A stretch of 40,654 nt of DNA, taken from positions 1-40,654 of the forward strand of contig JADFMT010000003.1 in the NCBI GenBank assembly GCA_022563755.1, written 5' to 3'. Source of the DNA: Patescibacteria group bacterium. Lineage in GTDB: Bacteria; Patescibacteriota; Minisyncoccia; HO2-45-28. This document shows positions 334 through 20,427 of the stretch, in pieces. The notes under the pieces were generated by a model that ran no database searches, had not been told where the DNA came from, and saw only the letters and a program-made list of their open reading frames with translations. A program made the position numbers and the translations under genes. Each line of letters begins with the position of its first letter. Position 1 is the stretch's first letter.

Positions 334-420
334 GGCGGGATGCCGGAGTGGTTTAACGGGGCGGTCTCGAAAACCGTTATATCCGAAAGGGTATCGGGGG
401 TTCGAATCCCTCTCCCGCCG
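334..420 (+). tRNA. tRNA-Ser(CGA)
   Basis: Acceptor GGCGGGA/TCCCGCC, anticodon arm GCGGT-CT-CGA-AA-ACCGT, long variable arm, T-loop TTCGAAT, discriminator G, no CCA. Confidence 0.95.
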
Positions 421-450
421 CATCTAACAGCTAGCACGAGGTAGTATCAT

Positions 451-1113
451 ATGACGACAAAAAAAGAAAAAGACAGGCAAAGAAAATATGACTGGGTTGT
501 TTTTGCTCAGAGTTATTTCTTGATAGCAAAGTTGGCCTGTCAAGAATTGTTAAATACTGAAGAAAAAAAGCACAGCAAAGTCAAAGGTAAGGATTATTTT
601 TATCAGCCAGCAGATTTGTTCGTGCCAATTTTGTTTAATATAAAACATGGAACCGAAGTCTTTGTTAAGGCCTTAGGTCTTTTTGCGTATGGGGAGTATA
701 GAGAAGGTCATGATATCCATCATCTATTTATAGAAGTTAAACAAAAAATATCAGATCAAAAAATATCTCCTCCTATAGAAAAGAAATACTATGACGCAGT
801 AACAAATGAGGACATTACTAATTCTCAGAAAGATTTGGATGATATTGAACCTCTTATTCTTTATTTTTACAATCTAGAGATATTAAAATCAAAAATCGGA
901 CAATACTACTCAATTAAAGATACCCAAAATGATTTTCTAAGATACCCAGATAATAAAGCAACGGTTCAAATTGATTGGGGCACTGTGCTAAGTAGTCGAA
1001 TTGAAGTAACTGACATAAAAGATATGCTTAGCAAATTGGATGAATTACTTGAATTATTCAACAAAGTTGGATACTTGTACGCGGTTCTAGATCGATCTAA
1101 CAGAATCACTTAA
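451..1113 (+). CDS. Hypothetical protein, HEPN-like helical fold
   Basis: 220-aa AT-rich ORF. LFNIKHGTEVFVK, GHDIHHLF and FLRYP resemble the H-x-E-x-LK / H-x-L / RYP pattern of HEPN proteins. Confidence 0.6.
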   Translation: MTTKKEKDRQRKYDWVVFAQSYFLIAKLACQELLNTEEKKHSKVKGKDYFYQPADLFVPILFNIKHGTEVFVKALGLFAYGEYREGHDIHHLFIEVKQKISDQKISPPIEKKYYDAVTNEDITNSQKDLDDIEPLILYFYNLEILKSKIGQYYSIKDTQNDFLRYPDNKATVQIDWGTVLSSRIEVTDIKDMLSKLDELLELFNKVGYLYAVLDRSNRIT

Positions 1114-1122
1114 GAATCTTAT

Positions 1123-1159
1123 GTGCACGAGAACATTAGTTTTGATAAAATAAAAATAT
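1123..1159 (+). repeat. Ser-array junction repeat S1 (includes extended -10)
   Basis: GTGCACGAGAACATTAGTTTTGATAAAATAAAAATAT aligns without gaps to 1654-1690 and 2070-2106. Confidence 0.8.
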
Positions 1160-1649
1160 GAATAACAAAAATATAGTTATCTATTTACTCATATTACTTT
1201 TGGGAATTTCTGTATACTTAAATTTAAAAGACGACAATTCCCAAAGAAAATATATAGAACAAAATATTAAAGCAGAAGAAGCTTTTGGAAACCAAATTGG
1301 TGAGTTACCACTCTTCTCTTCTGCCTGTTTCCCAACTTACAAACAGGTTTGTACTTATGGTGAATGTGAAATAATTACAGACTTAGGAACATCTTTTAGT
1401 CTTTTGGATAATCTTAATACAGACCAGCGTACCATCTCTCGTTGTGATTCTAATGGCTGTGATACTTACGATGCTCAATATTATGCTTCTGGTTTATATG
1501 AAAATTATCAAGCAGAACAGCCGCGTGGATTTTTTCTCAAAAAAGAAAATAAATCCCTTGTTGATACAGAAACTACATCGTATACAGAAGTGGCCACTCA
1601 GGGAGTAACGACTTTTCTATATTCTGGGTATTGCAAGGATGTAAAATAA
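1158..1649 (+). CDS. Hypothetical membrane-anchored or secreted protein
   Basis: N-terminal hydrophobic helix (IVIYLLILLLGISVYL) followed by a domain with six Cys; AT-rich. Confidence 0.75.
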   Translation: MNNKNIVIYLLILLLGISVYLNLKDDNSQRKYIEQNIKAEEAFGNQIGELPLFSSACFPTYKQVCTYGECEIITDLGTSFSLLDNLNTDQRTISRCDSNGCDTYDAQYYASGLYENYQAEQPRGFFLKKENKSLVDTETTSYTEVATQGVTTFLYSGYCKDVK

Positions 1650-1653
1650 CAAA

Positions 1654-1690
1654 GCGCACGAGGACCTTAATTTTGATAAACTAAAATAGT
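1654..1690 (+). repeat. Ser-array junction repeat S2 (includes extended -10)
   Basis: GCGCACGAGGACCTTAATTTTGATAAACTAAAATAGT, 33/37 identical to S3. Confidence 0.85.
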
Positions 1691-1706
1691 CAATAAAATT
1701 ACGAAA

Positions 1707-2027
1707 ATGAAAAAGAATGCTCACATAGAAGAACAAAAAAAGGATTCGAGTGCGCCCAATAGTAGACCTGCGTTCGTTAGAATTGCTCCAGGTGCAAAGG
1801 TAGATGGTCTCACTATGGTAGATAATACAGCAATAGGTGACGCTGATTTTCTAGACAACCAAGGAGAACTTAAAGACGCAACACTTGAAGGCAATAAACA
1901 TATTGTTCCAAATAACACAATCTCAAAAAGAGCCCTATGGAAGAGACCAGAAATAGTAATCCCTACAATAATAGCTATTATTTCAATCCCTTGGTGGCCT
2001 AGCATTTTCCGTTTATTATTTAAATAA
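1707..2027 (+). CDS. Hypothetical protein with C-terminal transmembrane helix
   Basis: 106 aa, directly behind the S2 promoter motif; C-terminal IVIPTIIAIISIPWW. Confidence 0.7.
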   Translation: MKKNAHIEEQKKDSSAPNSRPAFVRIAPGAKVDGLTMVDNTAIGDADFLDNQGELKDATLEGNKHIVPNNTISKRALWKRPEIVIPTIIAIISIPWWPSIFRLLFK

Positions 2028-2069
2028 ATGTAAGACATAGTTATTAAATTAGACTACTAATTTTCAAAT

Positions 2070-2106
2070 GCGCTCGAGGATCTTCGTTTTGATAAACTAA
2101 AATAGT
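2070..2106 (+). repeat. Ser-array junction repeat S3 (includes extended -10)
   Basis: GCGCTCGAGGATCTTCGTTTTGATAAACTAAAATAGT. Confidence 0.85.
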
Positions 2107-2114
2107 TAAAATAA

Positions 2115-2165
2115 CCTTACGGGGCTTGATCGGCCACGGTTCCAGCCCGAGGTAGCCCGCCATGA
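2115..2165 (+). repeat. 51-nt imperfect hairpin element, copy A
   Basis: CCTTACGGGGC...GCCCGCCATGA; same length and ends as 2747-2797. Confidence 0.7.
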
Positions 2166-2195
2166 TTATTTATTATCGAAGGTAATCCACAGCCT

Positions 2196-2693
2196 ATGAA
2201 AGAGTTACTAATTCAAATTCAAAAAGGACTTGATACAAACTTATATTTTCTGGCTCTATTTACTGCCTTAGCTATACCTGATATATGTGGTGCTTTGAGT
2301 TCGGAAAATGGAGAAACAGACGGCCAAAAGTATAAAGCTTGGTTCGACCAGTATATTGCGCCTAAATATATAAATTTTACTGATGGTGCAGACTGCTATC
2401 GGTTTCGTTGTTCTCTATTACACCAGGGCAGATCTCAACTCAAAGATAGTAAATTTAGTAGGATTTGGTTTATAGAACCCGGCACGACTAGTGTGGTGAT
2501 GCACGATAATACTTCAAACGATACTCTAAATATTGATGTGGGGGTATTTTGCAAAGATATTATTGCCGGTGCAGAAGAATACCTAAGCAAGAATGAACAA
2601 ACGGATTTATATAAAACAAATTACGATAAATTCGTCCGCAGATACCCAAATGGAATACCCCCTCTTATTACAGGCGTTCCTGTAATTGGCTAG
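2196..2693 (+). CDS. Hypothetical protein, HEPN-like with RxxxxH motif
   Basis: LAIPDICG near the N-terminus, Y..WF..Y, and YRFRCSLLHQG (R-x4-H, the HEPN RNase signature). Confidence 0.65.
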   Translation: MKELLIQIQKGLDTNLYFLALFTALAIPDICGALSSENGETDGQKYKAWFDQYIAPKYINFTDGADCYRFRCSLLHQGRSQLKDSKFSRIWFIEPGTTSVVMHDNTSNDTLNIDVGVFCKDIIAGAEEYLSKNEQTDLYKTNYDKFVRRYPNGIPPLITGVPVIG

Positions 2694-2746
2694 TATTAAG
2701 CCGACCCACGTGCCTAAATTTTTCTTTGGAAAAATCTTCTAAAAAC

Positions 2747-2797
2747 CCTTACGGGGCCTCACTTGTGGTGGCACTAGACCCAAGTGGCCCGCTATGA
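2747..2797 (+). repeat. 51-nt imperfect hairpin element, copy B
   Basis: CCTTACGGGGCCTCACTTGTGGT-GGCACTAG-ACCCAAGTGGCCCGCTATGA, a bulged stem-loop. Confidence 0.7.
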
Positions 2798-2882
2798 CAA
2801 ATTAAAATGCCTTGCTTTTTTGTATTGCTTATATAAAATTAATACGGCAATTAACTTCGCACATTTATAAAGAGGATTTGAA

Positions 2883-3992
2883 ATGGCCAGAGGAGAATAT
2901 GCCCAGGCAGGAGTTGATTATACGAAGATTGAACCCTTTAAACAGGCAATGATGGAAGTGGGCAGAAAAACGTTAGCTTTCCCCAACAAACGAGATGTTT
3001 TTGTGGAAACACACGCTCACGGTGCTGTCCATGAATATCGGGGCTCAAAGCCTCACGGTTGGGCCAATACACAAGAAGGCTTAGGCAATAAAAACTGGAT
3101 TGCAGAGTGGATGTACCAGAATGATGGTACAGGAAACACTTATTACGAAGGAATTGGGATTGATGCGGCTTTAATGGCAGTAAATGATGTTATTGCCCAA
3201 GGGGCAATGCCCGTGGTTTACACTGATGAAGTTGCCGCAGGCGATAGCGAATGGTTTGAAGACGCCAAGAGGGCAGAAGATTTGGCGAGAGGGTATTATC
3301 GTGTTTGCAAAATGGTTGCAATGGCTTTGCCTGCGGGCGAATCATCGTCTCTGCGTTATCTCGTCAACGCAGAACCACCGGTTAAAAGTGCTCCTGTCTT
3401 GAGCGGCTGCGTAACGGGTATTATTGTTCCCCGAAGCCGCCTGATTACAGGAGAAAACCTTCGGGCAGGAGATTGTATTTTAGGTGCGCCCTCTTCAGGA
3501 CTGCACGCCAATGGTATTTCTCTTGTTATTAAACGCGCTCTTCCACTTCCAGACCAGTTTCTTACGAAACTACCGAATGGCAAAACATTAGGAGAGGAAG
3601 CTCTTATTCCTACTCGCTCTTATGTTGCTTTGGTTGAGGCATTATTGAACGAAGAGATAGAAATACATGCCCTCCTTCCAGGAACAGGAGACGGCGTAGG
3701 GAAGGTTGCTTTTGATAAACGACCCTTTACCTATCGGATTTATGACTGGGTTCGCGTGCCGCCCCTTTTTCAATTTATGCGAGAATTGGGAGTTACTCTG
3801 AAAGATTGTCTCAAGACTTTTAACTGGGGGGTTGGCTATTACATCTTTGTGCCACCCTGCGAGGTCACGCGAGCAATTGATATTGGTGACAAAGCGGGTT
3901 ATGAGGTAGTTGAGGTCGGAAGAGTTGAAGAAGGAAAACGGCAGACTATCTTTGAGCCTGAAAACATTATTTTGCCTCCTCCGGGCCAGTAG
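2883..3992 (+). CDS. purM: AIR synthase / phosphoribosylformylglycinamidine cyclo-ligase (divergent PurM family)
   Basis: YAQAGVD, MAVNDVIAQGA-P, SSGLHANG-SL, L-PTRSY and TFNWGVG motifs. Confidence 0.8.
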   Translation: MARGEYAQAGVDYTKIEPFKQAMMEVGRKTLAFPNKRDVFVETHAHGAVHEYRGSKPHGWANTQEGLGNKNWIAEWMYQNDGTGNTYYEGIGIDAALMAVNDVIAQGAMPVVYTDEVAAGDSEWFEDAKRAEDLARGYYRVCKMVAMALPAGESSSLRYLVNAEPPVKSAPVLSGCVTGIIVPRSRLITGENLRAGDCILGAPSSGLHANGISLVIKRALPLPDQFLTKLPNGKTLGEEALIPTRSYVALVEALLNEEIEIHALLPGTGDGVGKVAFDKRPFTYRIYDWVRVPPLFQFMRELGVTLKDCLKTFNWGVGYYIFVPPCEVTRAIDIGDKAGYEVVEVGRVEEGKRQTIFEPENIILPPPGQ

Positions 3993-4014
3993 CTTTATTC
4001 ACTTTTTAGTACAC

Positions 4015-4040
4015 ACCACCTTATACGGGTGGTTTTTATT
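4015..4040 (+). terminator. Intrinsic terminator after purM
   Basis: ACCACC..GGTGGT stem followed by TTTTATT. Confidence 0.65.
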
Positions 4041-4095
4041 TAATTGATTTTGAGAGATTCGGGTGATATGGTTAAAAGCAAAGAAATGATCCGTT

Positions 4096-4875
4096 ATGAA
4101 AGCGCGTATTGACCATTATCTTCGCTTGGCATTCGAGCATACCGAATCACGCGTGTATCACGTCGTGAATGATACCCTTGCTATTATTATCGTGATTGCG
4201 GTAATCTTGGTAATTTTTGAATCCATAGAGGGTGTATATCTTCGTTACGGGAAAATTTTTGATATAAGCGAGATAATCATTGTAGGTGTTTTTACGCTCG
4301 AATATATCACCTATATCTATCTTGCTCCTAAGAAAAAGAAGTATTTATTTAGCGCCTTTGGAATCATTGATCTTCTTGCGATTCTGCCGACCTATCTTGG
4401 ATTTATCTTCCTGCCATTCGCCAACTTCAGGGTTCTGCGTGTCCTGCGGATCGTGAGAGTATTGCGGCTGCTGCGACTTTTACGGCTGCTTAAATTGCTT
4501 TCTTATACAAAACGACGCCACCCGGGAGAACGGATAACGTTCAAGGAGTTCCCGTGGTACACCATGGAGATTTATTTTTTTGCGCTTCTCTCGGTTGTCG
4601 TCATCGCAGGAACTTTCATGTACCTTGCCGAGCAAAACGTTTCAGGATCCCTTTTTACAAACGTCCCGCAAGGTATGTGGTGGGCAATTGTCACTTTGAC
4701 AACGGTGGGATATGGAGACATGGTCCCGCAAACAATATTAGGACGAATCATTGCGGCGCTCACTATGATTTCCGGACTCATGCTTTTTGCGCTCTTAATC
4801 AGTGTCGTGGGGAAAATCATGAAAAAAATTCTCTTCGGATCCCCGGATGAAATCACGGTAAAAGAAAAAGAGTAA
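4096..4875 (+). CDS. Voltage-gated potassium channel (ion transport family)
   Basis: TTVGYGD selectivity filter, WWAIVTLT pore helix, IIDLLAILP S3 segment and Arg-repeat S4. Confidence 0.93.
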   Translation: MKARIDHYLRLAFEHTESRVYHVVNDTLAIIIVIAVILVIFESIEGVYLRYGKIFDISEIIIVGVFTLEYITYIYLAPKKKKYLFSAFGIIDLLAILPTYLGFIFLPFANFRVLRVLRIVRVLRLLRLLRLLKLLSYTKRRHPGERITFKEFPWYTMEIYFFALLSVVVIAGTFMYLAEQNVSGSLFTNVPQGMWWAIVTLTTVGYGDMVPQTILGRIIAALTMISGLMLFALLISVVGKIMKKILFGSPDEITVKEKE

Positions 4876-4909
4876 AAACGCCTTTGATTTTTTGTGATTT
4901 TGCGCTATA

Positions 4910-5395
4910 GTGATGAACATGGTTCTTGAAACCTATACACCATTTATCCTTATGGGGATTGGGGGCGCGCTTTTCTTGATAGTCGCCGCACTCGTGTGGC
5001 TAATAATGCTTGAGATGCGGCTTCGGAAATTGTTTCGCGGCCGAAGGGGCATAGATTTAGAAACGCTCATGCAAGAGATCCAAAAAGATTTAGATGCCAT
5101 TTTGCAAAAGGGCATTCAAGTGGACGCTGTTCTTGAAAACATGGAAAGCCGCCTGCGCCAAAGCGCGCGCCACATTGGACTTGTGCGGTTTAACTCGTAC
5201 GGCGATACAGGCGGAGATCAAAGTTTTGCACTCGGAGTGCTCGATGAACGACGTAGCGGTTTCGTAATCTCAAGTCTTCATGGACGTGACTCCACCCGGC
5301 TCTACGCAAAACCGATCGTCCGAGGCGAATCTTCATATCAATTATCCCACGAGGAGAAACAAGCAATTCAAAAAGCGCTTTCAAGCGACGCTTAA
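4910..5395 (+). CDS. DUF4446 family protein
   Basis: N-terminal TM helix, coiled coil, GLVRFNSYGDTGGDQSFAL, GFVISSLHGR..RLYAKPI..LSHEEKQA. Confidence 0.85.
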   Translation: MMNMVLETYTPFILMGIGGALFLIVAALVWLIMLEMRLRKLFRGRRGIDLETLMQEIQKDLDAILQKGIQVDAVLENMESRLRQSARHIGLVRFNSYGDTGGDQSFALGVLDERRSGFVISSLHGRDSTRLYAKPIVRGESSYQLSHEEKQAIQKALSSDA

Positions 5396-5403
5396 TATGA
5401 TTC

Positions 5404-8015: not shown

Positions 8016-8087
8016 GCCGCGGTAGCTCAGTGGTGGAGCGCTTGCTTGAAGAGCAAGGCGTCGGGGGTTCGATTCCCTCCCGCGGCA
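8016..8087 (+). tRNA. tRNA-Phe(GAA)
   Basis: GCCGCGG/CCGCGGC acceptor, CTTGC-TT-GAA-GA-GCAAG, T-loop TTCGATT. Confidence 0.95.
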
Positions 8088-8379
8088 CTCAAAACAAAAA
8101 GAATGGCATCGCGTCATTCTTTTTGTTTTGAGTTGATGATAGAAACAGGAATCGAACCCTACGAAAGGGGGTACCAGCCGCGAGGCTCTTTCGCAAAGCG
8201 AAAAGCCCCGTCTCCGGGGAAAACTGTAGTTTTCCCCGTGGCGGAAAACAGCGAGACTGAGCTTGTCGAAGCCGAGCGCTAGAAATCCTTCGACACTGAG
8301 CTCAGGACGAAGTGCCGAAGGATTTCTAGGGAGGACCATAAGCGACGACGGGTTCTAGGAGCGCAGCGACGGATTCCCT
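8088..8379 (+). repeat. tRNA-linked structured element, copy 1 (Phe-type)
   Basis: A/T hairpin, then GGAATCGAACCC, a ~100-bp core shared with 15164-15443 and 20074-20352, then GGGTTC..GATTCCCT. Confidence 0.9.
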
Positions 8380-8432: not shown

Positions 8433-8503
8433 GACTATGGCGTACCTTTTAAAAACCAACAACCAAGAAGGCCTGACAATATCGAACCTTGAAAGGAGAT
8501 ATT

Positions 8504-8827
8504 ATGTCCAAAGTCAGCGAACAGCAGTTCTGTGAGATCCTTCAGCCCAAGCTCGGCGATTCGTGGGATCGCGCCCTGACCGTCTTCCGTAACTACGGCG
8601 AGATCTTGGCGTATGACGTAACCAACGTCCTACTCCATGCCGCCGACCAGGGAAAGGCGGATGAGGTGCTCGGCATTCTGGAGAAACACTATGAGAGCCA
8701 TCTCCAATTTCAGCACCCGGAGATCCGCGGCACTATCGAGGATCGCCTTCTCGGCGTCAATCCCACCCAGAATATGTTTCTTCGCATCTGCCAACAGACG
8801 TTGAGTCTCCAGCCGTCTCCGGCGTAG
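8504..8827 (+). CDS. Hypothetical protein (GC-richer than neighbours)
   Basis: AAAGGAG Shine-Dalgarno before the ATG at 8504; has its own promoter and terminator; codon style differs from flanking genes. Confidence 0.75.
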   Translation: MSKVSEQQFCEILQPKLGDSWDRALTVFRNYGEILAYDVTNVLLHAADQGKADEVLGILEKHYESHLQFQHPEIRGTIEDRLLGVNPTQNMFLRICQQTLSLQPSPA

Positions 8828-8855: not shown

Positions 8856-8901
8856 GGTCGGGTTCCACAGCACAATCGTGGAACTCGGCCATTTTCTTTT
8901 T
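8856..8901 (+). terminator. Intrinsic terminator
   Basis: GGTCGGGTTCCAC/GTGGAACTCGGCC stem with T-rich tail, between convergent genes. Confidence 0.7.
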
Positions 8902-8926
8902 GTTTGTATGTTTTGCGGATCGGTGA

Positions 8927-9415: not shown

Positions 9416-9459
9416 ATATTATTTAATATATCAAATTATAGCTGAATAAATAAATTTCA

Positions 9460-12386: not shown

Positions 12387-12390
12387 TTCC

Positions 12391-13588: not shown

Positions 13589-13593
13589 AAATA

Positions 13594-14544
13594 CTAAGAA
13601 GATTTCAGGAAAAACCGAATGCCAAAAAGTTTACGATTCATCTCTTGGCCCGCTAAACCCACGCGCATTGTGCTATCCGGGCCATTATAGTCCTCGTAAA
13701 ATAAAGAAAGTCCGCTTAGGCGTTTTTTAGACAAAAACATATCATATGCAACACCAAAAACGTAAGACTTGTTGCCTTTGCGGCTCTCTATATGACCGCT
13801 TGCGGAAAGATCAGATACCGGATTCACGCGATAGACAAACCTTGGTGCGCCAAAAAGGGATCGATAAGATTTTCGCACATCCCGATTAAAGAACGAACTA
13901 AATACATCATCAAATTTCGCTTCCCACAAAATCGCATCGAGCCGATATTCAAACGTGAACTTTGGAGCTATCTGCCACTGATGAGCAAAACGGCAAAATA
14001 CGAAATCCCGCGCGCTTATCTCACTAACGTCGATCTTCCGGTTTTCAACAAATTTTCTTGTCTCGCTACTTTCCAGTCCGCCGAACGAATGATGCTGATA
14101 TCCGCAACCAACAAACAGCTCTGGCCGAAAATACCACCGGATATCAAATCCGAGACTCCAAATAGAGGCCCTAACAGATTCCTCTTCGCCCTCGTTAAAG
14201 AAGACTCGGTTTCCGCCCCGCCAAACCCAGGCGAGTTGCTCCGGCCACCAATCGCATATTCCTAAAGCGCGTGTTGGGAGAAGCGAAAGGAGTGGAAACC
14301 CAAACCATGCGCCCTCAATGCTTCCTTCTCTAGAATACAAACCGTTTAAACGACCCTCTAAATCCGCTTTTGTCAAAAGGGGCTCAAACCGCACCTCATC
14401 AAACGAGAAAGACTTTCGGTATTTTGAATACGAAGAGACATAGCATTCATCGTCGTCCGCTTCCCTCGCAAAAGAGGTTGCGGGAGCGACGATTGAAAAA
14501 ACGAGCAGGGTCACAAGAACCCACCAATATCTTATTTTTCTCAT
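13594..14544 (-). CDS. Hypothetical exported protein, beta-barrel-like
   Basis: Signal peptide (..APATSFA), GAGGAGG Shine-Dalgarno, TTGACG-N17-TAGCAT promoter, amphipathic aromatic beta-strand patterns. Confidence 0.75.
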   Translation of the reverse strand: MRKIRYWWVLVTLLVFSIVAPATSFAREADDDECYVSSYSKYRKSFSFDEVRFEPLLTKADLEGRLNGLYSREGSIEGAWFGFPLLSLLPTRALGICDWWPEQLAWVWRGGNRVFFNEGEEESVRASIWSLGFDIRWYFRPELFVGCGYQHHSFGGLESSETRKFVENRKIDVSEISARDFVFCRFAHQWQIAPKFTFEYRLDAILWEAKFDDVFSSFFNRDVRKSYRSLFGAPRFVYRVNPVSDLSASGHIESRKGNKSYVFGVAYDMFLSKKRLSGLSLFYEDYNGPDSTMRVGLAGQEMNRKLFGIRFFLKSS

Positions 14545-14645
14545 CTCTCTACCTCCTCTACAGGTGTAAATGAGCGATTTTTACTACCCCAATGCTATCA
14601 AAATAGGCTTCGGACGTCAACGAGTCTAAAATATTACTTCTTTAT

Positions 14646-14697
14646 GTGCATTTTAGGAGAACAGGTTATTTATGGTGAGTTTGTCGAACTAGAACCT
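14646..14697. repeat. Gly-array junction J5, interrupted by a 23-nt REP-like insert
   Basis: GTGCATTTTAGGAGAACAGGTTA[tttatggtgagtttgtcgaacta]GAACCT. Confidence 0.75.
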
Positions 14698-14720
14698 GTT
14701 TTTTTATATAAAATGTGAAG

Positions 14721-15053
14721 TTAAGGAGTTAGTTTCCATTCTCCCTCCACATGCTTAGCAACTGAATGTCCACCGACTGGAATGCCTTCTTGATCAAAAA
14801 AAGTAACGTGAATAGCGGTAATCGAAGCCTGCCCTTCTGAGTATTGTCCCTTTCTCATGTATGAGTACTCTGTATCTCCATCTTCTCCAGAAACTTTGAT
14901 GTCCCACAGGTAAAGACCGCGTTCATCTTCAAGTTTTCGTACGTCTTCATATCCTTCCTTCCCGACTAATTGTTCAAAAACTGATTGTACCTCTTCTGGG
15001 GTGGGAATAGCCCCTGGTCCTTTTTCAAAAGTGTTTGGTGATCCTTCATGCAT
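14721..15053 (-). CDS. Hypothetical acidic protein
   Basis: 110-aa ORF lying between two junction motifs, with a near-leaderless promoter. Confidence 0.8.
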   Translation of the reverse strand: MHEGSPNTFEKGPGAIPTPEEVQSVFEQLVGKEGYEDVRKLEDERGLYLWDIKVSGEDGDTEYSYMRKGQYSEGQASITAIHVTFFDQEGIPVGGHSVAKHVEGEWKLTP

Positions 15054-15083: not shown

Positions 15084-15121
15084 GTGTATTTAATAAAGCT
15101 ATGTGAAATGTTAGAACCTCT
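15084..15121. repeat. Gly-array junction J4 (degenerate)
   Basis: GTGTATTTAA...GTTAGAACCTCT; the last 12 nt are identical to J3. Confidence 0.55.
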
Positions 15122-15163: not shown

Positions 15164-15443
15164 GGGAGAATCCGCTTCCCTGCCTGCCGGCAGACAGGGC
15201 TAGAACTCGTCGTCCCTCGACTTCGCTCGGGACTCCCTAGAAACCGAGGGGGTTTCTAGCGCTCGTCCGCCAGCTGGCGGACTCACTGTTTTCCGCCACG
15301 GGGAAAACTACAGTTTTCCCCGGAGACGGGGCTTTTCGCTTTACGAAAGAGCCTCGCGTCTGGCACCCCCTTTCGCGAGTTCGATTCTCTAACTCATCAA
15401 ATCAAAACAAAAAGAACGACATAAAGCCGTTCTTTTTGTTTTG
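15164..15443 (-). repeat. tRNA-linked structured element, copy 2 (Gly-type)
   Basis: Same hairpin and core as copy 1. Read on the minus strand it carries GAGAATCGAACTC, GAGTTC and GATTCTCCC, matching the tRNA-Gly T-arm. Confidence 0.9.
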
Positions 15444-15473
15444 TGCACTTTAGGGGAATAGGTTAGAACCTCT
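15443..15473. repeat. Gly-array junction J3
   Basis: GTGCACTTTAGGGGAATAGGTTAGAACCTCT, 28/31 identical to J2. Confidence 0.85.
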
Positions 15474-15619
15474 CTTAAGGCATTAACTGATTATTCTACA
15501 TTTGAAATGGTAACATTTTTAGTAGCGTTATTCCCATAGCACCTCGACCCGATATTAAATTGACACTCTCTACCACTTTTTGCATTATAAACTAAGTATA
15601 TAATTTAACTAATAATGCT

Positions 15620-16597
15620 TTGAAAAAGTATACTTTAAAAAGAGAAATACAAATCCAGAGATTTAAGAATAATCCTTTATTGGAGCCAGATCAATCTCAT
15701 GCCTGGATGAGTAAGAATGTATTTAACTGCGGGGTTATTATTGACGATGACGGCTTCTATAAAATGCTCTTTCGTGGTTCTTGGACTGAAGATCAGTCAA
15801 TGTCTGATTTGGGACTTGCAATCAGCGTTAACGGAAAAAAATGGTATGTTCTGGATAAACCAGTTCTAAAGTGTGGATTTAATAAGTTTTGCACATATGG
15901 CATTGACGACCCAAGAATTGTGAAATGGATTGACGGTTGGAAATATATTTTTGCAGCAATTCGCCCGTATAAGAAGGAATATAGAACAGTAGGTATTTTT
16001 AGAACAAAAAATTTCTTAGAATATGAGTGGGTTGGAATGCCATTCAACTTCGAAGATGTAGATGCTTCTATTTTCCCTGAACCAATTAACGGTTGGGCAT
16101 ATTTACTTCATAGAAAAGCTCCGCATATATGGATTTCTCGAACGAAAGATATGAGTTTAGAAAGTGGCTGGCAGGATATCCAAATTTTGATCAATAAAGA
16201 CCAATTTTATCGGCATCCTGAACATGGTGTTCTGCCTGACAAAATAGGTATTGCCGGACCACCAATAAGAACTCCCAAAGGTTGGCTGTTAATTACACAC
16301 GCGGTTCATCGATGGGACAAGAAGATAACAAGGTACTCTTTTCTTCTCAACCGGTCATACTCACTTAGCTTTGTAGTACTTGATTTAGAGAATCCTACAA
16401 AGGTTCTCTACGTCCACCCAAAACCCATATTATGGCCGGAGGAAAGACATGAAATTGTGGGCCTTATTCCAAATGTGGTCTTTAGCTGCGCCACTGTTGA
16501 TACCGGAGGCGATTCACTCTATATCTACTGGGGTGGAGCCGACACGGTAATTTGTGGTGGTAAACTTATGAAAAAAGATCTACCAATGTGCTATTAA
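15620..16597 (+). CDS. Predicted glycosidase/phosphorylase, GH130 (DUF377)-like beta-propeller
   Basis: NPLLEP..VFNCG, GIDDPRI, FPEPING, LHR, PPIRTPKGWLLITH, LDLENP, PNVVFSC, YIYWGGADT; TTG start; AT-rich. Confidence 0.88.
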   Translation: MKKYTLKREIQIQRFKNNPLLEPDQSHAWMSKNVFNCGVIIDDDGFYKMLFRGSWTEDQSMSDLGLAISVNGKKWYVLDKPVLKCGFNKFCTYGIDDPRIVKWIDGWKYIFAAIRPYKKEYRTVGIFRTKNFLEYEWVGMPFNFEDVDASIFPEPINGWAYLLHRKAPHIWISRTKDMSLESGWQDIQILINKDQFYRHPEHGVLPDKIGIAGPPIRTPKGWLLITHAVHRWDKKITRYSFLLNRSYSLSFVVLDLENPTKVLYVHPKPILWPEERHEIVGLIPNVVFSCATVDTGGDSLYIYWGGADTVICGGKLMKKDLPMCY

Positions 16598-16606
16598 ACC
16601 CTCTCT

Positions 16607-16638
16607 GCCTACTTCTAAATTTAGAAGTAGGCTCTTTT
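16607..16638 (+). terminator. Intrinsic terminator (perfect 26-bp palindrome)
   Basis: GCCTACTTCTAAATTTAGAAGTAGGC followed by TCTTTT. Confidence 0.7.
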
Positions 16639-16639
16639 A

Positions 16640-16670
16640 GTACACTTTAGGGGAACAGGTTAAAACCTCT
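16640..16670. repeat. Gly-array junction J2
   Basis: GTACACTTTAGGGGAACAGGTTAAAACCTCT. Confidence 0.85.
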
Positions 16671-16744
16671 TTTAGAAGCAGAGTTTAAGCCCCCCCCGTT
16701 TTTTCATACTGCTTATAGTACATCCGTAAAAAATTGGCGTGTTT

Positions 16745-18142
16745 TTATGGTGCGTACACATAATACACCCTCCCCTTATAGTCGTCTGTGAAGAAAAACG
16801 AATTTACATCATTTTGTAAAATATCGACTGGCCGCCCGAAGCGCTCTATGTCTCCGGTTGGCTGATCGGAATGTGCGTAAGCGGTGCTAATAAGCCACCC
16901 AGTTTGCGGTCTCTTTTCGGTTAAAAAACCATCCATGAATACCTCTTGTTCTCCATCCTTTGATACCCTAACTATGTGATACCCTGCACCGATCTTCGGC
17001 TCAAAAGAACCATGTAGAGCAACAAGAAATGTATTTTTTAGAACTGAATGTGCATCCTTAGAAAAATATTCAATACCAAGTGGTGCCGCATGTGGCTCAA
17101 ACGCGGAAAATGAACGCGGCACTTGTGCACATGAAAATGATTGTGTCCATTTTCGGGAAGTATCGGGATAAATTTTTCCATTTAATTCGTAACAGAATGG
17201 CCATCCATAATACTCACCTTCGATGAGCTTATACATACCATCGTCCGGCGCTTGAGGTCCAAGATGATCAGCTCCGTTCGCTGTCGCGTATAATTCTCTG
17301 CCTGCCCATGTAAAACCGACTGTATTCCGCAGCCCATCTGCATAGATCCGCTTATTGCCACCATCGGGATTTATGCTATATATCATAGCGCGCATTTCGT
17401 CCTCAGGTTGCTCACACGCATTACAACCACTGCCAACAGAAACATACAACCGATTATCGTAAAATTTGATCGTACGAGTGATATGCCACACAACACTTGA
17501 TTCTCCAGGCACCTGCTTATTGGGAAATGTCGTTATTATCTCCGGATCACCTGATGGCTCTGTGTCTCCTGCGCTATATGGATACCGAACGATATGCGCG
17601 GTAAGCGCAATATATATCCACTCTTGGCCATTTTTATCAGTATAAAATGCGACGCTATTAGGTCCCCGCAATCCAGAAAGATAGGTGCTTTTTGTTTGGA
17701 ATCGCTTATTTATTTCGTCAAAATTTTCTAAAACATAGATTTTTCCCTCGTGGGAAAGATTCATACTAACGAGATCTGGCACAAACATTCTTCCATCTGG
17801 ACTCATAGCCATAAATCGTGCTTTGCCCAAACCTTCTGCCGCAACAGAGATGTTAAAATCCTCAGCAACCTCGAACATGACTTCAGTTCCGTCTTCAAAT
17901 ATGATGATCCGAGGCACAAGATTGATAGTCGGAAGTACATCACTTTTACCGTCACCGACCTTAATCTGTGTGTTATTGAGAATTGCTTCAAAATCTGCTT
18001 GTTTTTCATCACCAATGTTATCAGAGGTAGAATTATCGGCCTTGTCTGAACGAGTCGTATTGTTAAAAAGAAACACTCCGCCCATAATCAGTACCAAGGC
18101 GATGACGATTCCCATAATCAAATTTTTAACATTCATAGACAC
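16745..18142 (-). CDS. Membrane-anchored glucose/sorbosone dehydrogenase family (PQQ-type propeller) protein
   Basis: N-terminal TM helix; H-TRTI, LYVSVGSGCNAC, GLRNTVG, YGWPFC, PHAAPLG, VALHGS, GRPVD. Confidence 0.88.
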   Translation of the reverse strand: MSMNVKNLIMGIVIALVLIMGGVFLFNNTTRSDKADNSTSDNIGDEKQADFEAILNNTQIKVGDGKSDVLPTINLVPRIIIFEDGTEVMFEVAEDFNISVAAEGLGKARFMAMSPDGRMFVPDLVSMNLSHEGKIYVLENFDEINKRFQTKSTYLSGLRGPNSVAFYTDKNGQEWIYIALTAHIVRYPYSAGDTEPSGDPEIITTFPNKQVPGESSVVWHITRTIKFYDNRLYVSVGSGCNACEQPEDEMRAMIYSINPDGGNKRIYADGLRNTVGFTWAGRELYATANGADHLGPQAPDDGMYKLIEGEYYGWPFCYELNGKIYPDTSRKWTQSFSCAQVPRSFSAFEPHAAPLGIEYFSKDAHSVLKNTFLVALHGSFEPKIGAGYHIVRVSKDGEQEVFMDGFLTEKRPQTGWLISTAYAHSDQPTGDIERFGRPVDILQNDVNSFFFTDDYKGRVYYVYAP

Positions 18143-18203: not shown

Positions 18204-18333
18204 CGCAAAAGTTGTGATTTAAGAACGGTCTAAGCGCTACTCAAGCGCCAAAACTTGTATTCTGTGCGGAGCCCCTCACTTCGTTTCGGGACGCTACATT
18301 TTTCAGCCAATCGCTTCGCTCTTGGGAAAAATG

Positions 18334-18404
18334 TGCGGGTAGGGAGAATCGAACTCCCGTCATCTGATTGGCAACCAGATGTTTTGCCACTAAACTATAC
18401 CCGC
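18334..18404 (-). tRNA. tRNA-Gly(GCC)
   Basis: GCGGGTA/TACCCGC acceptor, TCTGG-TT-GCC-AA-TCAGA, T-arm GGGAG-TTCGATT-CTCCC. Confidence 0.95.
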
Positions 18405-18443: not shown

Positions 18444-19169
18444 TTATCTCGCAGCAACCGAGTCACGACGAAGAAATTCAAGGACGCGTTCTAAATCTTC
18501 TGGCGGATCGGCTTCCAGTCCAAGTTTTGCGCCCGAAAGCGTAATAAACTCCAGCTTCCAGGCATGAAGAAATTGCCTGGCAAGTTCTGCAGGACAATCC
18601 GCCGGCTGGCGGAAGCGCTTACCACTATAAATCCGATCACATACGACAGGATGACCAATGGCAGCAAAGTGCGAGCGAATTTGGTGGGTGCGGCCGGTAA
18701 CCGGTACTGCTTCTACTAATGTATAGTCTTTAAAGCGCTCCAGTACGTGATACTCTGTCACTGCCTCTCGTGTTTTACCTCTAAGTCCTTTCCCAGAAAC
18801 GCGCCGCAGAGGGCTTTTCCGGCTGCGGCCAATCGGAAAATCTATCTTTCCCTTGTCATTTTTCACCCTCCCAATCACAAGCACTAAATAGTTTTTCTTA
18901 ATACGCCTTTTTTGAAACACTTCTTTGAAATAACGAAACGAGTTTTGGTTTCTGGTAATCAGTAAAAGGCCTGAGGTGTCTTTATCCAGCCGATGAACGA
19001 TTCCTGGACGAACTGGATCCTCGCCAACATTTTTTAGTTCGGGATATTTTTCAATCAATTCTTGAATCAAGGATCCGGATTTGTGGTGAGCATCCGGGTG
19101 CACCACAACTCCGGGCGGCTTATTTACCACCACGATATCCTCGTCCTCGTAAATAATGCGCAAGATCAC
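18444..19169 (-). CDS. RluA family pseudouridine synthase
   Basis: VNKPPGVVVHP, HRLDKDTSG, TGRTHQIR, D-IY, QFLHA; no S4 domain. Confidence 0.95.
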   Translation of the reverse strand: MILRIIYEDEDIVVVNKPPGVVVHPDAHHKSGSLIQELIEKYPELKNVGEDPVRPGIVHRLDKDTSGLLLITRNQNSFRYFKEVFQKRRIKKNYLVLVIGRVKNDKGKIDFPIGRSRKSPLRRVSGKGLRGKTREAVTEYHVLERFKDYTLVEAVPVTGRTHQIRSHFAAIGHPVVCDRIYSGKRFRQPADCPAELARQFLHAWKLEFITLSGAKLGLEADPPEDLERVLEFLRRDSVAAR

Positions 19170-19170
19170 G

Positions 19171-19830
19171 CTATTTAATATACCTTGATTGATCCTGAGA
19201 TTGAGACGGCATACCCCGAAATCCCGGCAGGGTTGAAGATGGCCCTGATGGTTGTGGTTTTTGAGGCGGAGAGGATGAGAGCGGTTTTGGTTGAGGTGGC
19301 TGTGATGGCTGGGGTGATCGAGGAGGTGGAGTCGGTTGGGATGACTGAGGGCCTTGAGGTAGAGATGGTAAAGACGGCTTTAGTCCGCCAGCTGGCGGAG
19401 TAGGCTGAACCGGCGGGGTAGGTGATTTAGGAGGCTGAAATGGAGATTTCTGAGGTGGAGTCGGTTGTGGAGATGGGGACGGTCGAAACGTTGGTTGGGT
19501 GGATGGAGACGGTCTTGGTTCTGCCGGTTTAGATGGATAGACGGGTCCGATTGTGGGTGCTCGCTCATTAAACTTAACGGTTGGCTCTTTTTCTGTAACT
19601 ATTACCACCTTCTGCTTCTTTCGTTCTTGCAAAAAAACATATACGAAAGTGCCCAATGCCAGTAGTAAAACAACGTATCGCAATATACTAACGAGCGCGC
19701 CAGAGACCACAACCGTGGAATCCTGTGTAACAATCCCGCTATAGACTCCGGTTCCAAAGAAAATCAGAATATTCAACATAATCCATGCCGCCACCCCCAA
19801 AAATAGTGCTTTAATTGTTACTTTGATCAT
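19171..19830 (-). CDS. Hypothetical membrane protein with long Pro/Ser/Gln-rich tail
   Basis: Two N-terminal TM helices followed by about 130 aa of low-complexity P/S/Q sequence. Confidence 0.8.
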   Translation of the reverse strand: MIKVTIKALFLGVAAWIMLNILIFFGTGVYSGIVTQDSTVVVSGALVSILRYVVLLLALGTFVYVFLQERKKQKVVIVTEKEPTVKFNERAPTIGPVYPSKPAEPRPSPSTQPTFRPSPSPQPTPPQKSPFQPPKSPTPPVQPTPPAGGLKPSLPSLPQGPQSSQPTPPPRSPQPSQPPQPKPLSSSPPQKPQPSGPSSTLPGFRGMPSQSQDQSRYIK

Positions 19831-19831
19831 A

Positions 19832-19971
19832 CCCCGTAAAGCAAAATCGAATGTTTCTTGCTAAATTCCAAAATAACCATTCGAATCTGCTGTTATTAAT
19901 ATAAACTTGTAATAATACATAATTATACCTCGCAAGAAACTAAATTTAGCTTTCAATTTTGCCTTACGGGG
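19832..19971. mobile_element. 140-bp MITE-like element with 20-bp imperfect TIRs and CATA target duplication
   Basis: Left end CCCCGTAAAGCAAAATCGAA; right end (reverse complement) CCCCGTAAGGCAAAATTGAA; CATA at 19828-19831 and 19972-19975. Confidence 0.75.
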
Positions 19972-20002
19972 CATATATTATAGTATACCACAATGAATGC
20001 GA

Positions 20003-20053
20003 GTGCGCGCTGCAGGATTTGCCAGCCCAAGGCTGGTCCGCCTCGGGCGGAAC
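20003..20053 (-). pseudogene. 3' fragment of a different tRNA, interrupted in the T-loop
   Basis: Minus strand GTTC[29-nt double hairpin]AAATCCTGCAGCGCGCAC: T-loop, T-stem, acceptor strand and discriminator. Confidence 0.6.
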
Positions 20054-20073
20054 ACCTAATAATCTTTAAATAG

Positions 20074-20352
20074 GTGGGCGTTGGAGGACTCCGTCGCTTC
20101 CTGCCGGCAGGCAGGCGCTTCTAGAACCCGTCGTCCCTCGATTTTACTCGGGACTCCCTAGAAACCCCTCGGTTTCTAGCGCTCGCTTCGCTCGCTGTTT
20201 TCCGCCACGGGGAAAACTACAGTTTTCCCCGAAGACGGGGCTTTTCGCTTTGCGAAAGAGCCTCGCGTCTGGCACCCCCTTTCGTGGGTTCGAGTCCCAA
20301 CAAACACAATACACAAAATAACAAACACCATTAAAAAGATGTTTATTATTTT
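20074..20352 (-). repeat. tRNA-linked structured element, copy 3 (Val-type) with 18-bp tRNA 3' duplication
   Basis: Core shared with copies 1 and 2; GTGGGCGTTGGAGGACTC occurs at 20074-20091 and 20353-20370. Confidence 0.92.
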
Positions 20353-20353
20353 G

Positions 20354-20427
20354 TGGGCGTTGGAGGACTCGAACCTCCGGCCTTCTCGATGTCACCGAGA
20401 CGCTCTAACCGGCTGAGCTAAACGCCC
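20354..20427 (-). tRNA. tRNA-Val(GAC)
   Basis: GGGCGTT/AACGCCC acceptor, TCTCG-GT-GAC-AT-CGAGA, T-arm GGAGG-TTCGAGT-CCTCC. Confidence 0.95.

Follow-up and report, generated by a model that had tools for sequence, protein, structure and literature searches.

In G000, a 781-kb genome of the candidate-phyla-radiation type, small "additive islets" break up the conserved gene backbone at the 3' boundary of certain tRNA genes. Each islet is a series of one to six single-gene modules unrelated to one another, and the DNA past several of the tRNA genes is a zone where individual genes are turned over. In the window (the whole 40,654-nt stretch analysed here), four tRNA genes are followed by lineage-specific DNA within a backbone kept by family relatives: tRNA-Ser(CGA) (334..421, plus strand), tRNA-Phe (8016..8088, plus), tRNA-Gly(GCC) (18333..18404, minus) and tRNA-Val(GAC) (20353..20427, minus). 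Their positions, their lack of an encoded CCA and their ends (...CCGCAC / ...GGCAC / ...CCCAC) are as a preliminary description of this DNA had read them. Within the span 334-20427, that description placed accessory modules after all four tRNA genes. Comparison with family relatives shows the span to be largely syntenic conserved backbone, including the blocks DUF4446-IF2-RbfA (4910-7286), HSP20-PrsW-aaRS-TsaD (8927-13545) and pseudouridine synthase with its neighbour (18444-19830), but the tRNA flanks are indeed variable; all four carry lineage-specific DNA, although that at the Val locus consists of a folded element plus non-coding hairpins over about 250 nt, with no gene cassette. Tentatively, and with a confidence that falls a little short of even, we regard the islets as miniature tRNA-seeded additive islands, similar to tycheposons and devoid of an integrase.

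The tRNA flanks vary between relatives within a preserved gene order. The order tRNA-Ser, DUF4446, IF2, RbfA is kept in 6/6 family loci examined, where the gap after tRNA-Ser, 4489 nt long in the window, measures 119, about 260, 345, 557, 1342 or 2691 nt; the order PsiSyn, tRNA-Gly, TsaD is kept in five of five loci, where the gap after tRNA-Gly, 4788 nt long in the window, measures 2, 365, 527, 1267 or 2831 nt; and the distance from tRNA-Val-GAC to the next gene, 28 and 53 nt in relatives, is 523 nt here. Also in favour of tRNA-seeded islands are the homologues of the GH130 cassette gene found at eight metagenome loci, whose similarity spans 15629-16638 only; at three of the eight, the homologue lies about 100 nt past tRNA-Leu-CAG (two near-identical loci) or tRNA-Lys-TTT (one locus).

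Further evidence comes from a close, congeneric relative represented by contigs from two metagenomes (runs X3 and X4; ~92-93% identity), whose joints are given as the positions where matched segments meet, the letters between being not known for most. The terminator hairpin after tRNA-Phe (8087..8133) has a right arm, TTCTTTTTGTTT (8117-8128), that recurs at 8894-8905 and bounds a 777-nt segment missing in the relative. The corresponding joint there (8116 -> 8894, 12 nt being compatible with either side) represents an empty tRNA-Phe site, devoid of both the folded element and the cassette gene u112 (8489..8827, plus). Downstream of tRNA-Gly, reading along the forward strand, the window holds the cassette gene u110 (14721..15053, minus), an orphan copy of the folded element with its terminator hairpin (15402..15443; 83-86% like that after tRNA-Phe), the junction repeat D2a (15439..15477, plus; GTGCAC TTTAGGGGAATAGGTTAGAACCTCT), the GH130 cassette gene (15620..16632, plus), which has a TTGACA-N17 promoter (15560-15588) and a terminator (16607-16632) of its own, the repeat D2b (16636..16674, plus; GTACAC...) and a GSDH-like cassette gene (16745..18142, minus) of low depth in the relative's runs. 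The relative's joints here (15078 -> 18332, and 15446 -> 14702 with 26 letters between) place the u110 module between GTGC, on the side of the element's terminator, and the tRNA-Gly end, in lieu of GH130 and the GSDH-like gene. It is joined at 18332, the base preceding the tRNA-Gly 3' end, and this exact end is one insertion point that different modules have used. The other breakpoint, 15446, falls within a GTGCAC word of D2a. D2 has two strong copies (at 15439 and 16636; 87% identity), a weaker one with a longer hairpin loop (D2c, 14642..14700, plus) and, as read by eye, a fourth degenerate copy near 15100; a single gene is bounded by direct D2 repeats of 35 nt. As for the GCAC-type core proposed to open the modules, the 4-mer itself is not enriched between genes of the window (22 of 192 GCAC/GTGC occurrences are intergenic, for an intergenic share of about 12%), and GTGCAC occurs 62 times genome-wide against 48.9 expected, but the relative's breakpoints fall on the core beyond chance.

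The tRNA-Ser locus adds repeats that tie islets on different contigs together (C followed by a number denotes a contig of the G000 bin). Immediately after the anchor tRNA comes a trailer motif, ATCTAACAGCTAGCACGAGG (422..441, plus), also found 3' of tRNA-Trp (C24), tRNA-Ser-GGA (C27, C12) and a tRNA-Gln repeat (C31), hence after four tRNA genes and one tRNA repeat in total; the D3 word GCACGAGG is already present at 434. Then follow, all on the plus strand, a cassette gene of 220 aa with a weak HEPN match below cut-off (451..1113), D3 copy 1 (1120..1157; GTGCACGAGAAC... then TGATAAAATAAAAAT immediately 5' of the ATG), u163 (1158..1649), D3 copy 2 (1651..1698), u106 (1707..2027; like u163, without a family), D3 copy 3 with the hairpin hp1 of about 55 nt (2067..2170), u165 (2196..2693) and the hairpin hp2 (2745..2795; 90% identical to C30 672-733). 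The D3-hp1 unit recurs on C24, C12 and C31 (two copies); u165, set between hp1 and hp2, whose ends are alike and whose middles differ, is absent from a paralogous array on C12. G+C is low over positions 1-3000 (34-38%), the depth of u163 is about 5 in the close relative's runs, and that of the bin 997-1663, next to the 220-aa gene, is 5.6/4.8 against about 50/30 in the relative.

Both D2 and D3 are real repeats, but D3 (about 48 nt, with window copies at 1120, 1651 and 2067) is not locus-specific as first described, being found also on C17, C24, C31 and C12. A promoter-like pattern drawn from it has 11 matches genome-wide, nine of which carry the D3 upstream half as read by eye: three in the Ser islet, one on C17, one on C24 and four on C31, none of them within an ORF. 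The two matches lacking this half lie on C13 and C38, and a tenth D3 variant is on C12. C17, C24 and C31 are short or low-GC contigs, and tRNA genes or tRNA fragments are found on, or at the ends of, the D3-bearing contigs. In its right half, D3 resembles an extended -10 promoter. Most modules have a promoter of their own, often a D3 box, and a terminator. A generic two-hexamer promoter scan did not exceed chance (5 found for 11.1 expected; 12 for 11.5). We note that such a scan does not model the extended -10 box that D3 resembles. An ordinary conserved gene order punctuated by plain regulatory signals would suit this resemblance and the core, syntenic parts of the span; it is very improbable, being contradicted by relatives that differ at exactly these flanks and by the confinement of the nine D3-bearing places to the Ser islet, C17, C24 and C31. 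The preliminary description had named identical gene order in relatives, breakpoints away from the junction repeats, and motifs serving widely as core-gene promoters as findings that would count against it. Gene order is not identical at the tRNA flanks, the breakpoint at 15446 coincides with a junction repeat and core genes do not generally have the motifs as promoters; none of the three was therefore observed.

The contig C30, a second haplotype from the same bin, has other genes after tRNA-Ser and, together with the close relative, bears out the claim that one-gene modules have repeatedly been gained, lost and reordered at tRNA 3' flanks. It also introduces the possible, if somewhat doubtful, explanation that there is no dedicated system, the islets forming and changing as DNA that has been taken up recombines, whether homologously or by homology-facilitated illegitimate events. 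Portable homology anchors would be supplied by the tRNA genes, which are highly conserved, by terminators and by the D3, hp and folded-element repeats, and breakpoints would therefore pile up at the ends of homology. The upstream DUF192 gene of C30 is 92% identical to that of the window, homology ends before tRNA-Ser, the tRNA-Ser sequence itself differs and everything from it onward is replaced, which resembles flanking-homology replacement rather than insertion at a tRNA end. Equally in keeping with recombination are the mosaic sharing of junction modules by islets at different tRNAs, the short repeats flanking insertions (5 nt, TGTGC, and 12 nt), which speak against tRNA-seeded islands, and the ending of C12, C24, C27, C30, C31 and C47 at islet-type loci, as strain mixtures would give. 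PilM and PilN-like type IV pilus assembly genes are present in the window at 21401-23085, and the searches of G000 found no recombinase beyond Xer. Recombination at dispersed repeats and tRNA genes accounts for some of the data just as well. It fits less easily with the reuse of the tRNA-Gly end to the nucleotide by different cassettes, with the 35-nt direct D2 repeats around a single gene, and with the folded elements flanked by eight tRNAs' own 3' ends from the same T-loop start, a pattern not produced by plain homologous recombination.

This folded element, hereafter TLE (tRNA-linked element), is a non-coding repeat of 110-230 nt. The "T-arm-mirroring" structure reported at the Phe, Gly and Val loci is confirmed as three copies (8148..8378, minus; the orphan copy, 15166..15388, plus; 20085..20297, plus) that are 80-96% alike and each end in a T-arm-like hairpin. 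A model, R1, finds ten TLEs in G000, although it was itself built partly from G000 copies; seven adjoin a called tRNA, an eighth lies against a partial tRNA where a contig ends, and the remaining two are orphans. The element usually converges with its tRNA, lies 31-64 nt from the tRNA 3' end, and is flanked by a direct copy, 7 to 31 nt long, of the neighbouring tRNA's 3' end beginning in the T-loop (G57); its partners are Phe, Gly, Val, Met, Tyr, Lys (twice), Gln, Ser, Glu, Arg and Ala, and the flank matches the adjacent tRNA's own 3' end with an identical T-loop start for eight different tRNAs. At the Val locus, where a terminator-like bidirectional hairpin (20312..20355) separates element and tRNA, the distal boundary is the last 18 nt of tRNA-Val-GAC (20075..20092, plus); the ends of the orphan copy derive from tRNA-Gly(GCC) (13-nt T-arm identity, 9-nt distal repeat). 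TLEs are present in 52 of 151 genomes and 42 of 124 sampled genera of the class, at 1 to 20 copies per genome, and in two Omnitrophota-labelled records.

Integrase attB sites occur in tRNA and tmRNA genes, with a T-loop sublocation, and the distal TLE repeat likewise runs from T-loop G57 to the tRNA 3' end, so that the tRNA remains intact. TLE differs from such sites in that one family lies at many different tRNAs with no integrase, an inverted T-arm copy lies inside it and a 16-nt insert splits its distal T-loop copy. Bacterial MITEs and structured intergenic repeats form a class of short multi-copy non-coding elements, which TLE resembles in being short, non-coding, multi-copy, hairpin-rich, close to terminators and of a copy number that varies by genome. 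In contrast to MITEs, its flanking duplication is variable, its terminal inverted repeat derives from the target, it shows a strong preference for tRNA 3' ends and no partner transposase is present in G000; no member of the class gave a match.

It is also conceivable, although unlikely, that TLE acts chiefly as a structured, functional RNA or as a regulatory switch, that it is not mobile and that its link to cassettes is incidental. It would be transcribed towards the tRNA, with a closing helix built from local sequence, and its "copy, complement, copy" layout could yield alternative pairings (closing helix or terminator) in the manner of an attenuator. The breadth of its conservation and its strong covariation are consistent with this: pairing holds in 92.5% of cells, compared with 84.7% in shuffles and 17-61% in slid controls, 11 pairs are changed on both sides (reached by 0/500 shuffles), and one hairpin has six compensatory pairs out of eight. 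So are UUCG-type loops on the element strand, the tRNA-Lys-TTT copy in G000, G001 and G003, and the layout T, reverse complement of T, T, which occurs with non-tRNA ends too. Against an RNA role stand the range in copy number, the 96-98% identity of long-form copies at Phe, Gly, Val and Met inside G000, the lack of TLE at the orthologous loci of relatives (0 hits, 14 sources) and at the close relative's tRNA-Phe site, the lack of an Rfam match, and upstream flanks that are unrelated and hence hold no conserved promoter.

The preliminary description had termed the loci integron-like, which was not borne out. Searches of G000 for resolvase, RVT_1, Y1_Tnp, TnpB, IS110, rve, DDE_Tnp_1 and Cas1 all returned 0, and no integron integrase, transposase, reverse transcriptase or Cas1 was found; its sole tyrosine recombinase reaches 131 bits with the integron-integrase model (cut-off 265) and passes a Xer model. 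Integrons and CALINs are cassette arrays defined, in the part of the published account used here, by IntI, attI and attC (PMC4889954). The islets share with them single genes, unrelated to each other, between which lie imperfect palindromes that have a short core in common, insertion beside a fixed anchor and, as in CALINs, no integrase in cis (PMC4889954), and hp1 and hp2, with conserved ends and a variable middle, would fit such a reading. As compared with that account, however, IntI is absent, the anchor is a tRNA 3' end, the junction repeats vary by locus, integron core words were not seen by eye, and the cassettes, which have their own promoters and terminators and are found on both strands, are neither promoterless nor co-oriented. 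An integron in the defining sense was thus rejected, and an attC cluster without integrase is just as hard to credit, either being highly improbable.

The system closest to our preferred reading is that of the tycheposons, which build tRNA-seeded additive genomic islands in Prochlorococcus, most such islands being without an integrase at a given time (10.1101/2020.12.28.424599). According to the part of that report used here, these islands too lie directly beside specific tRNA genes, where newcomers insert and displace older material, are bounded by partial tRNA copies, show a strain heterogeneity that peaks next to the tRNA and reside in a streamlined host genome that is poor in classical mobile elements (10.1101/2020.12.28.424599). 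The partial-tRNA direct repeats around TLEs match this signature of tRNA-integrating elements (10.1101/2020.12.28.424599). Set against the same part of the report, the modules here are single genes of 0.3-1.5 kb rather than multi-gene elements, neither an integrase nor a replication gene of the tycheposon type is present in the G000 assembly, no partial copy of tRNA-Ser occurs in the Ser islet, the boundaries are marked by other repeats (D2, D3 and hp), and only the non-coding TLE is flanked by partial tRNAs. The variable length of the TLE repeats, the non-tRNA ends of some copies in other genomes and the absence of the exact TLE pattern from the viral contigs searched likewise weigh against tRNA-seeded islands, as does the failure of the G000 searches to reveal a dedicated recombinase; the D3 and trailer repeats tied to islets argue for them, and module boundaries share short repeats that recur at G000 islets (tRNA trailer, D3, hp1/hp2, D2 and TLE). 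Modules and TLEs may enter by site-specific recombination at or beside the tRNA 3' end, through an enzyme that would act in trans, either the single Xer-like tyrosine recombinase of G000 or one carried by transient, unassembled elements. Newer arrivals would then push older ones outward from the tRNA, as in the Prochlorococcus model, and the dispersed junction repeats could permit reshuffling between islets.

The AIR-synthase-like gene and ion channel (2883..4875, plus) are variable within the family (AIRS was found in 6/41 genomes) and yet present in the close relative. The variable gene u316 (13594..14544, minus) has a depth of about 0 across all four runs, and the close family relative G001 carries a gene 23% identical to it in the same position.

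The window is the entire contig C8 (40.6 kb) of a 781-kb assembly of 47 contigs (G000), rated 100% complete by marker genes, whose breaks fall exactly at the islets, the runs of single-gene modules found 3' of tRNA genes. Small size, a short IF-2 and type IV pilus genes are consistent with a candidate-phyla-radiation bacterium. ARAGORN and Rfam concur on nine tRNA genes in the window, including the four (Ser, Phe, Gly and Val-GAC) named in the preliminary description. That description had placed accessory modules after these tRNAs within 334-20427; the 3' flanks of the tRNAs are variable, but much of the span is housekeeping backbone according to Pfam, namely DUF4446, IF-2 and RbfA (4910-7286), HSP20, PrsW, a class I aminoacyl-tRNA synthetase and TsaD (8927-13545), and the pseudouridine synthase PsiSyn (18444-19169). 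Family relatives, with IF-2 proteins ~61-64% identical to that of the window, keep the order PilM, PilN, two small genes, tRNA-Arg, tRNA-Val-GAC, u219, PsiSyn, tRNA-Gly, TsaD, aminoacyl-tRNA synthetase, PrsW, HSP20 and tRNA-Phe, as well as a second one, tRNA-Ser, DUF4446, IF-2, RbfA, tRNA-Cys and tRNA-Leu.

Relatives differ immediately downstream of certain tRNA genes. The gap from tRNA-Ser to DUF4446 measures 119, ~260, 345, 557, 1342 and 2691 nt in six relatives versus 4489 nt in the window, and that from tRNA-Gly to TsaD 2, 365, 527, 1267 and 2831 nt in five relatives versus 4788 nt. After tRNA-Val-GAC the gap is 28 or 53 nt in relatives versus 523 nt, and between tRNA-Phe and HSP20 171 or 597 nt versus 839 nt. 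Comparison of the orthologous loci thus shows flanks differing in length and content within a conserved backbone order, and the AIR-synthase-like gene (AIRS) is patchy, being present in 6 of 41 genomes. In directly adjoining a tRNA gene and varying between relatives, these flanks resemble tRNA-seeded additive islands of the tycheposon type.

Four metagenome runs (X1-X4), whose contigs were aligned at 80% likeness, contain small shares of the window. X3 and X4 yielded multi-kb contigs ~92-93% identical to the backbone (records 17, 18, 20 and 22) and representing a close relative; X1 and X2 yielded small, mostly diverged pieces only, and parts uncovered there count as no evidence. The breakpoints of the relative were read from contigs, the sequence between most joints not being known, and a weak joint between 7509 and 8478 (side 30-36) was left out of the analysis. 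At the Phe locus, 8116 is joined to 8894 with 12 nt matching both sides; this word, TTCTTTTTGTTT, forms the right arm of the hairpin terminator downstream of tRNA-Phe and is repeated at 8894, so that the relative is without 777 nt carrying u112 and a folded repeat that we term the tRNA-linked element (TLE). At the Gly locus, 15078 is joined to 18332, the position immediately preceding the 3' end of tRNA-Gly, and 15446, within GTGCAC, joins back to 14702 via 26 other letters. Together these joints give the order TLE, terminator, GTGC, a stretch like the junction repeat D2, the u110 module and tRNA-Gly; in the same place the window has a GSDH-like gene and GH130, with u110 on the far side of the TLE. 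The preliminary description had set a GCAC-like core at module starts. The bare word GCAC/GTGC shows no intergenic enrichment and the frequency of GTGCAC is unremarkable, yet the breakpoints of the relative do fall on this core. GTGCAC as a restriction-linked hot spot was rejected, the word being neither avoided nor enriched.

Read depth in the runs of the relative is ~0 over u316 and ~5 over u163, against a backbone of ~50 (X3) and ~30 (X4). Over GH130 it reaches ~5-9 times the backbone, from which we infer that this gene is also present in other organisms of those samples. Record 17 begins at 2801, preceded by 594 unlike letters, which indicates that the Ser-locus cassettes do not lie upstream of AIRS in the relative. 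We note a further variable point, not adjacent to a tRNA, at 4865-4882, where the relative in X3 and X4 has 536 extra letters between an ion-channel gene and DUF4446. A second haplotype occurs in the same bin: contig C30 carries a DUF192 gene 92% identical to window positions 1-326, followed by a differing tRNA-Ser(CGA) sequence, a NUDIX gene, a hairpin 90% identical to hp2 and another unknown gene.

The junctions of the Ser locus carry D3, a ~45-nt unit consisting of G(Y)GCWCGARGA followed by TGRTAAAnTAAAAT. The latter box immediately precedes ATG in two copies and, judged by sequence, would suit an extended -10 box driving a leaderless mRNA; a generic promoter scan was uninformative. Genome-wide, this promoter-half pattern has 11 matches, none within ORFs, and the upstream half accompanies it at nine of them (three in the window, one each on C17 and C24, four on C31), a tenth place on C12 being a variant. 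Junction repeats had been described as locus-specific, a view that this distribution contradicts for D3; D3-type places are confined to these five contigs and are not widespread promoters of core genes, a pattern that would have counted against the preliminary description. The short word TTTTGATAAA carries no information on its own: of its 38 copies, 24 lie within ORFs. C17 bears tRNA-Gln-TTG and C24 tRNA-Trp, and fragments of tRNA-Gln and tRNA-Ser-GGA lie at the ends of C31 and C12, respectively. A 20-nt trailer recurs after tRNA-Ser-CGA, tRNA-Trp, tRNA-Ser-GGA (two haplotypes) and the displaced tRNA-Gln end on C31. The hairpins hp1 and hp2 have ~11-nt ends in common and differ in their middles. 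On C12 a D3-hp1 unit leads into the sequence that stands after u165 in the window, indicating that u165 is present in one array and missing from the other. GH130 has a D2 copy at either side, u110 is flanked by weaker ones, and the homology of GH130 to eight metagenome loci spans the ORF and terminator only, ending one base before the copy D2b; in three of the eight, two of them near-identical, the homologue lies ~100 nt after a tRNA (Leu-CAG, Lys-TTT). No cassette protein found a family in PADLOC or NCBIfam scans.

Every Ser-locus gene has its own D3 box and GH130 its own TTGACA-N17 site and terminator; GH130 is on the plus strand, the GSDH-like gene and u110 on the minus strand. On these grounds and for want of an IntI, a true integron or a CALIN was set aside as very unlikely; by eye, no integron core words were seen in D2 or in hp1 and hp2, which are imperfect palindromes.

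Contig C31 (L014, 1-18599), 19 kb long, low in G+C and ending in a tRNA-Gln fragment, probably represents a further, large islet of this type. Its unrelated genes, all on a single strand, encode TIR/ThsB-like, DUF2779 and RNase T-like proteins, a DEAD helicase, an RTX repeat protein, an M12-like protease, a redoxin, a cupredoxin and a MazG-like protein; it also carries four D3 and two TLE copies, and no recombinase or replication gene was seen among the 20 ORFs scanned.

The structured element mirroring the T-arm, first noticed at the Phe, Gly and Val loci, proved real: these are three of ten TLE copies in the genome. Seven adjoin a called tRNA (Phe, Val-GAC, Met, Tyr, Lys-CTT, Lys-TTT and Gln-CTG), one lies at a partial tRNA-Gln at a contig end and two are orphans. 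The ends of the orphan at 15166-15388 derive from tRNA-Gly, which argues that 2.9 kb with GH130 and the GSDH-like gene were inserted between that tRNA and the TLE. Read on the strand opposite the tRNA, a TLE opens with the reverse complement of the tRNA 3' end to T-loop position 57 (7-31 nt, extending 12 nt into the trailer on C2), followed by a conserved 16-nt block, GAACCY, a variable hairpin, two covarying hairpins, GACCCC, a T-arm copy, an A-rich spacer or terminator and the convergent tRNA. The T-arm copy is identical to that of the neighbouring tRNA over 16-17 nt in three cases; the partial-tRNA repeats of the Phe and Gly copies are short (7-9 nt), those at Val, Met, Tyr, Lys and Gln longer (17-31 nt), and neither the Ser islet nor the stretches between the Gly cassettes showed any. 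In two family relatives tRNA-Phe alone is inverted versus its neighbours (L083 of G005, 6130-6202; L085 of G006, 6379-6451; window 8016-8088), the flanking gene order being unchanged, a flip in place that may be related to the inverted T-arm copies.

The two ends of the TLE pair with each other. Across 14 copies from eight genomes, 92.5% of cells are paired versus 84.7% in shuffles (17-61% in slid controls), and 11 pairs change on both sides, a number reached by none of 500 shuffles. Rfam returned tRNAs only over the whole window, and a permissive scan of 20000-20360 gave unrelated families with a best E-value of 0.12; a known RNA is therefore rejected for lack of an Rfam match. Readings as a tmRNA-like, RNase P, SRP, Y-RNA-like or bridge-/omega-RNA-like molecule were considered and tentatively set aside. 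A 16-nt palindrome, TCCGCCRGCYGGCGGA, forms an optional hairpin module within TLE copies in G000, G003 and G136; the 781-kb genome contains this palindrome 12 times (window 15265-15282, 18597-18613 and 19383-19399; C2, C15, C20, C22, C25, C27, C31, C43 and C47), two of them within ORFs, those of the pseudouridine synthase and its neighbour.

A strict DNA pattern found the TLE in 7 of 201 genomes of the class and in ten stretches from species-representative genomes, labelled among others Parcubacteria, Niyogibacteria, Spechtbacterales, Saccharibacteria and, twice, Omnitrophota; the layout beside the tRNA is unchanged wherever the locus is long enough, one stretch having no visible tRNA. A covariance model extended this to 52 of 151 genomes and 42 of 124 genera, with 1-20 copies each. 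Among 26 best-hit loci inspected outside G000, 16 show a tRNA converging on the TLE, with 31-64 nt between the TLE and the tRNA 3' end, one more has an uncalled tRNA-like end, and several have non-tRNA ends arranged as target copy, body, complement, small hairpin and target. The model found no TLE in 14 other sources, including the counterparts of the Ser, Phe, Gly and Val loci in six relatives, and long-form copies at different tRNAs of G000 are 96-98% alike; together these observations argue for recent spread within the lineage. In L019/L038 (G006) and L039 the tRNA-like genes beside the TLE, not called by ARAGORN, seemingly contain long insertions beyond the T-arm region and could be tRNA genes with introns.

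The genome-wide listing of recombinases bore out the absence of an integrase from the window: the 781 kb hold one tyrosine recombinase, on C22 beside tRNA-Arg-TCG, which scores as XerC/D/A. It passes the XerA-type model (237.8 against a cut-off of 220) and reaches 131.1 bits on the integron-integrase model TIGR02249 (cut-off 265) and 82 bits on NF011946 (cut-off 435). No element-borne tyrosine or serine recombinase or replication genes were found in the 47-contig assembly, and family searches detected no resolvase, reverse transcriptase, Y1 transposase, TnpB, IS110, rve, DDE_Tnp_1 or Cas1. Several origins of the TLE were rejected accordingly: a MITE (flanking duplications of 7-31 nt, a terminal helix made of target sequence, no transposase family found), a casposon-derived MITE (no Cas1) and a bridge- or omega-RNA (its partners, IS110 transposase and TnpB, searched and not found). 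Retro-copying of mature tRNA ends was discarded since no reverse transcriptase was found and the CCA pattern is inconsistent, distal repeats carrying a CCA absent from the gene (three Gln copies in G000, Lys in G001), running into the gene's own trailer (C2, Omnitrophota) or omitting a CCA that the gene has (L034). A phage attP origin was likewise set aside, with no exact matches in viral contigs, a weak negative given the single strict pattern.

The tRNA flanks behave as hot spots, their cassettes are modular single genes and junction repeats are shared among them. As to mechanism, site-specific insertion by a trans-acting enzyme would fall just short of an even call. The rival reading, in which tRNAs and dispersed repeats anchor recombination and no dedicated system is at work, is somewhat less likely, and minor readings share the remainder. 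We also put forward, as an unlikely reading, that the TLE is a new structure-defined element that attaches at the T-loop of tRNA genes or, at times, at other hairpins at gene ends, builds its closing helix from the target, spreads without known transposase, integrase or reverse transcriptase and forms, with the D2, D3 and hp sites, a tRNA-anchored gene-capture platform. Its spread could be driven by the Xer enzyme of the host, by a protein not yet recognised or by template switching at the T-arm hairpin. Such a platform would do the job of an integron in candidate-phyla-radiation bacteria by a different mechanism.

Candidate-phyla-radiation bacteria have tiny genomes with few recognisable mobile elements, and to our knowledge the route by which they gain accessory genes is unclear. 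The locus offers a concrete one, in which single genes that bring their own expression signals are gained and lost at the tRNA 3' boundary, with nucleotide-exact breakpoints and junction repeats common to several islets. Present in about a third of the class genomes sampled in up to 20 copies, covarying and without Rfam match, the TLE may be a mobile element, whose target-templated architecture would be unusual, or a functional structured RNA, and could combine the two; either would be undescribed so far. A narrow literature search found no description of a TLE-like element or of tRNA-flank islets in these bacteria. The closest described system is that of tycheposon-driven additive islands beside tRNA genes, whose boundaries are marked by partial tRNAs and most of which are without integrase at a given time (10.1101/2020.12.28.424599). 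Unlike in those islands, the modules here are single genes, no element-type integrase was found in G000, and its islets have further junction sites and the TLE.

Fragments like the conserved end block of the TLE (…AGCGAAGCGAC…) occur in the trailers of three tRNA genes without a full element (L017 on C30, ~1255-1290; C5, just 3' of tRNA-Ala-TGC; window 18305-18325) and may be footprints of lost or partial elements. Finally, a type IV pilus/pseudopilin cluster (PilM, PilN-like and N-methyl-motif proteins) at window 21401-31287 adjoins the tRNA-Arg/Val pair and bears on DNA uptake as a possible entry route for cassettes.
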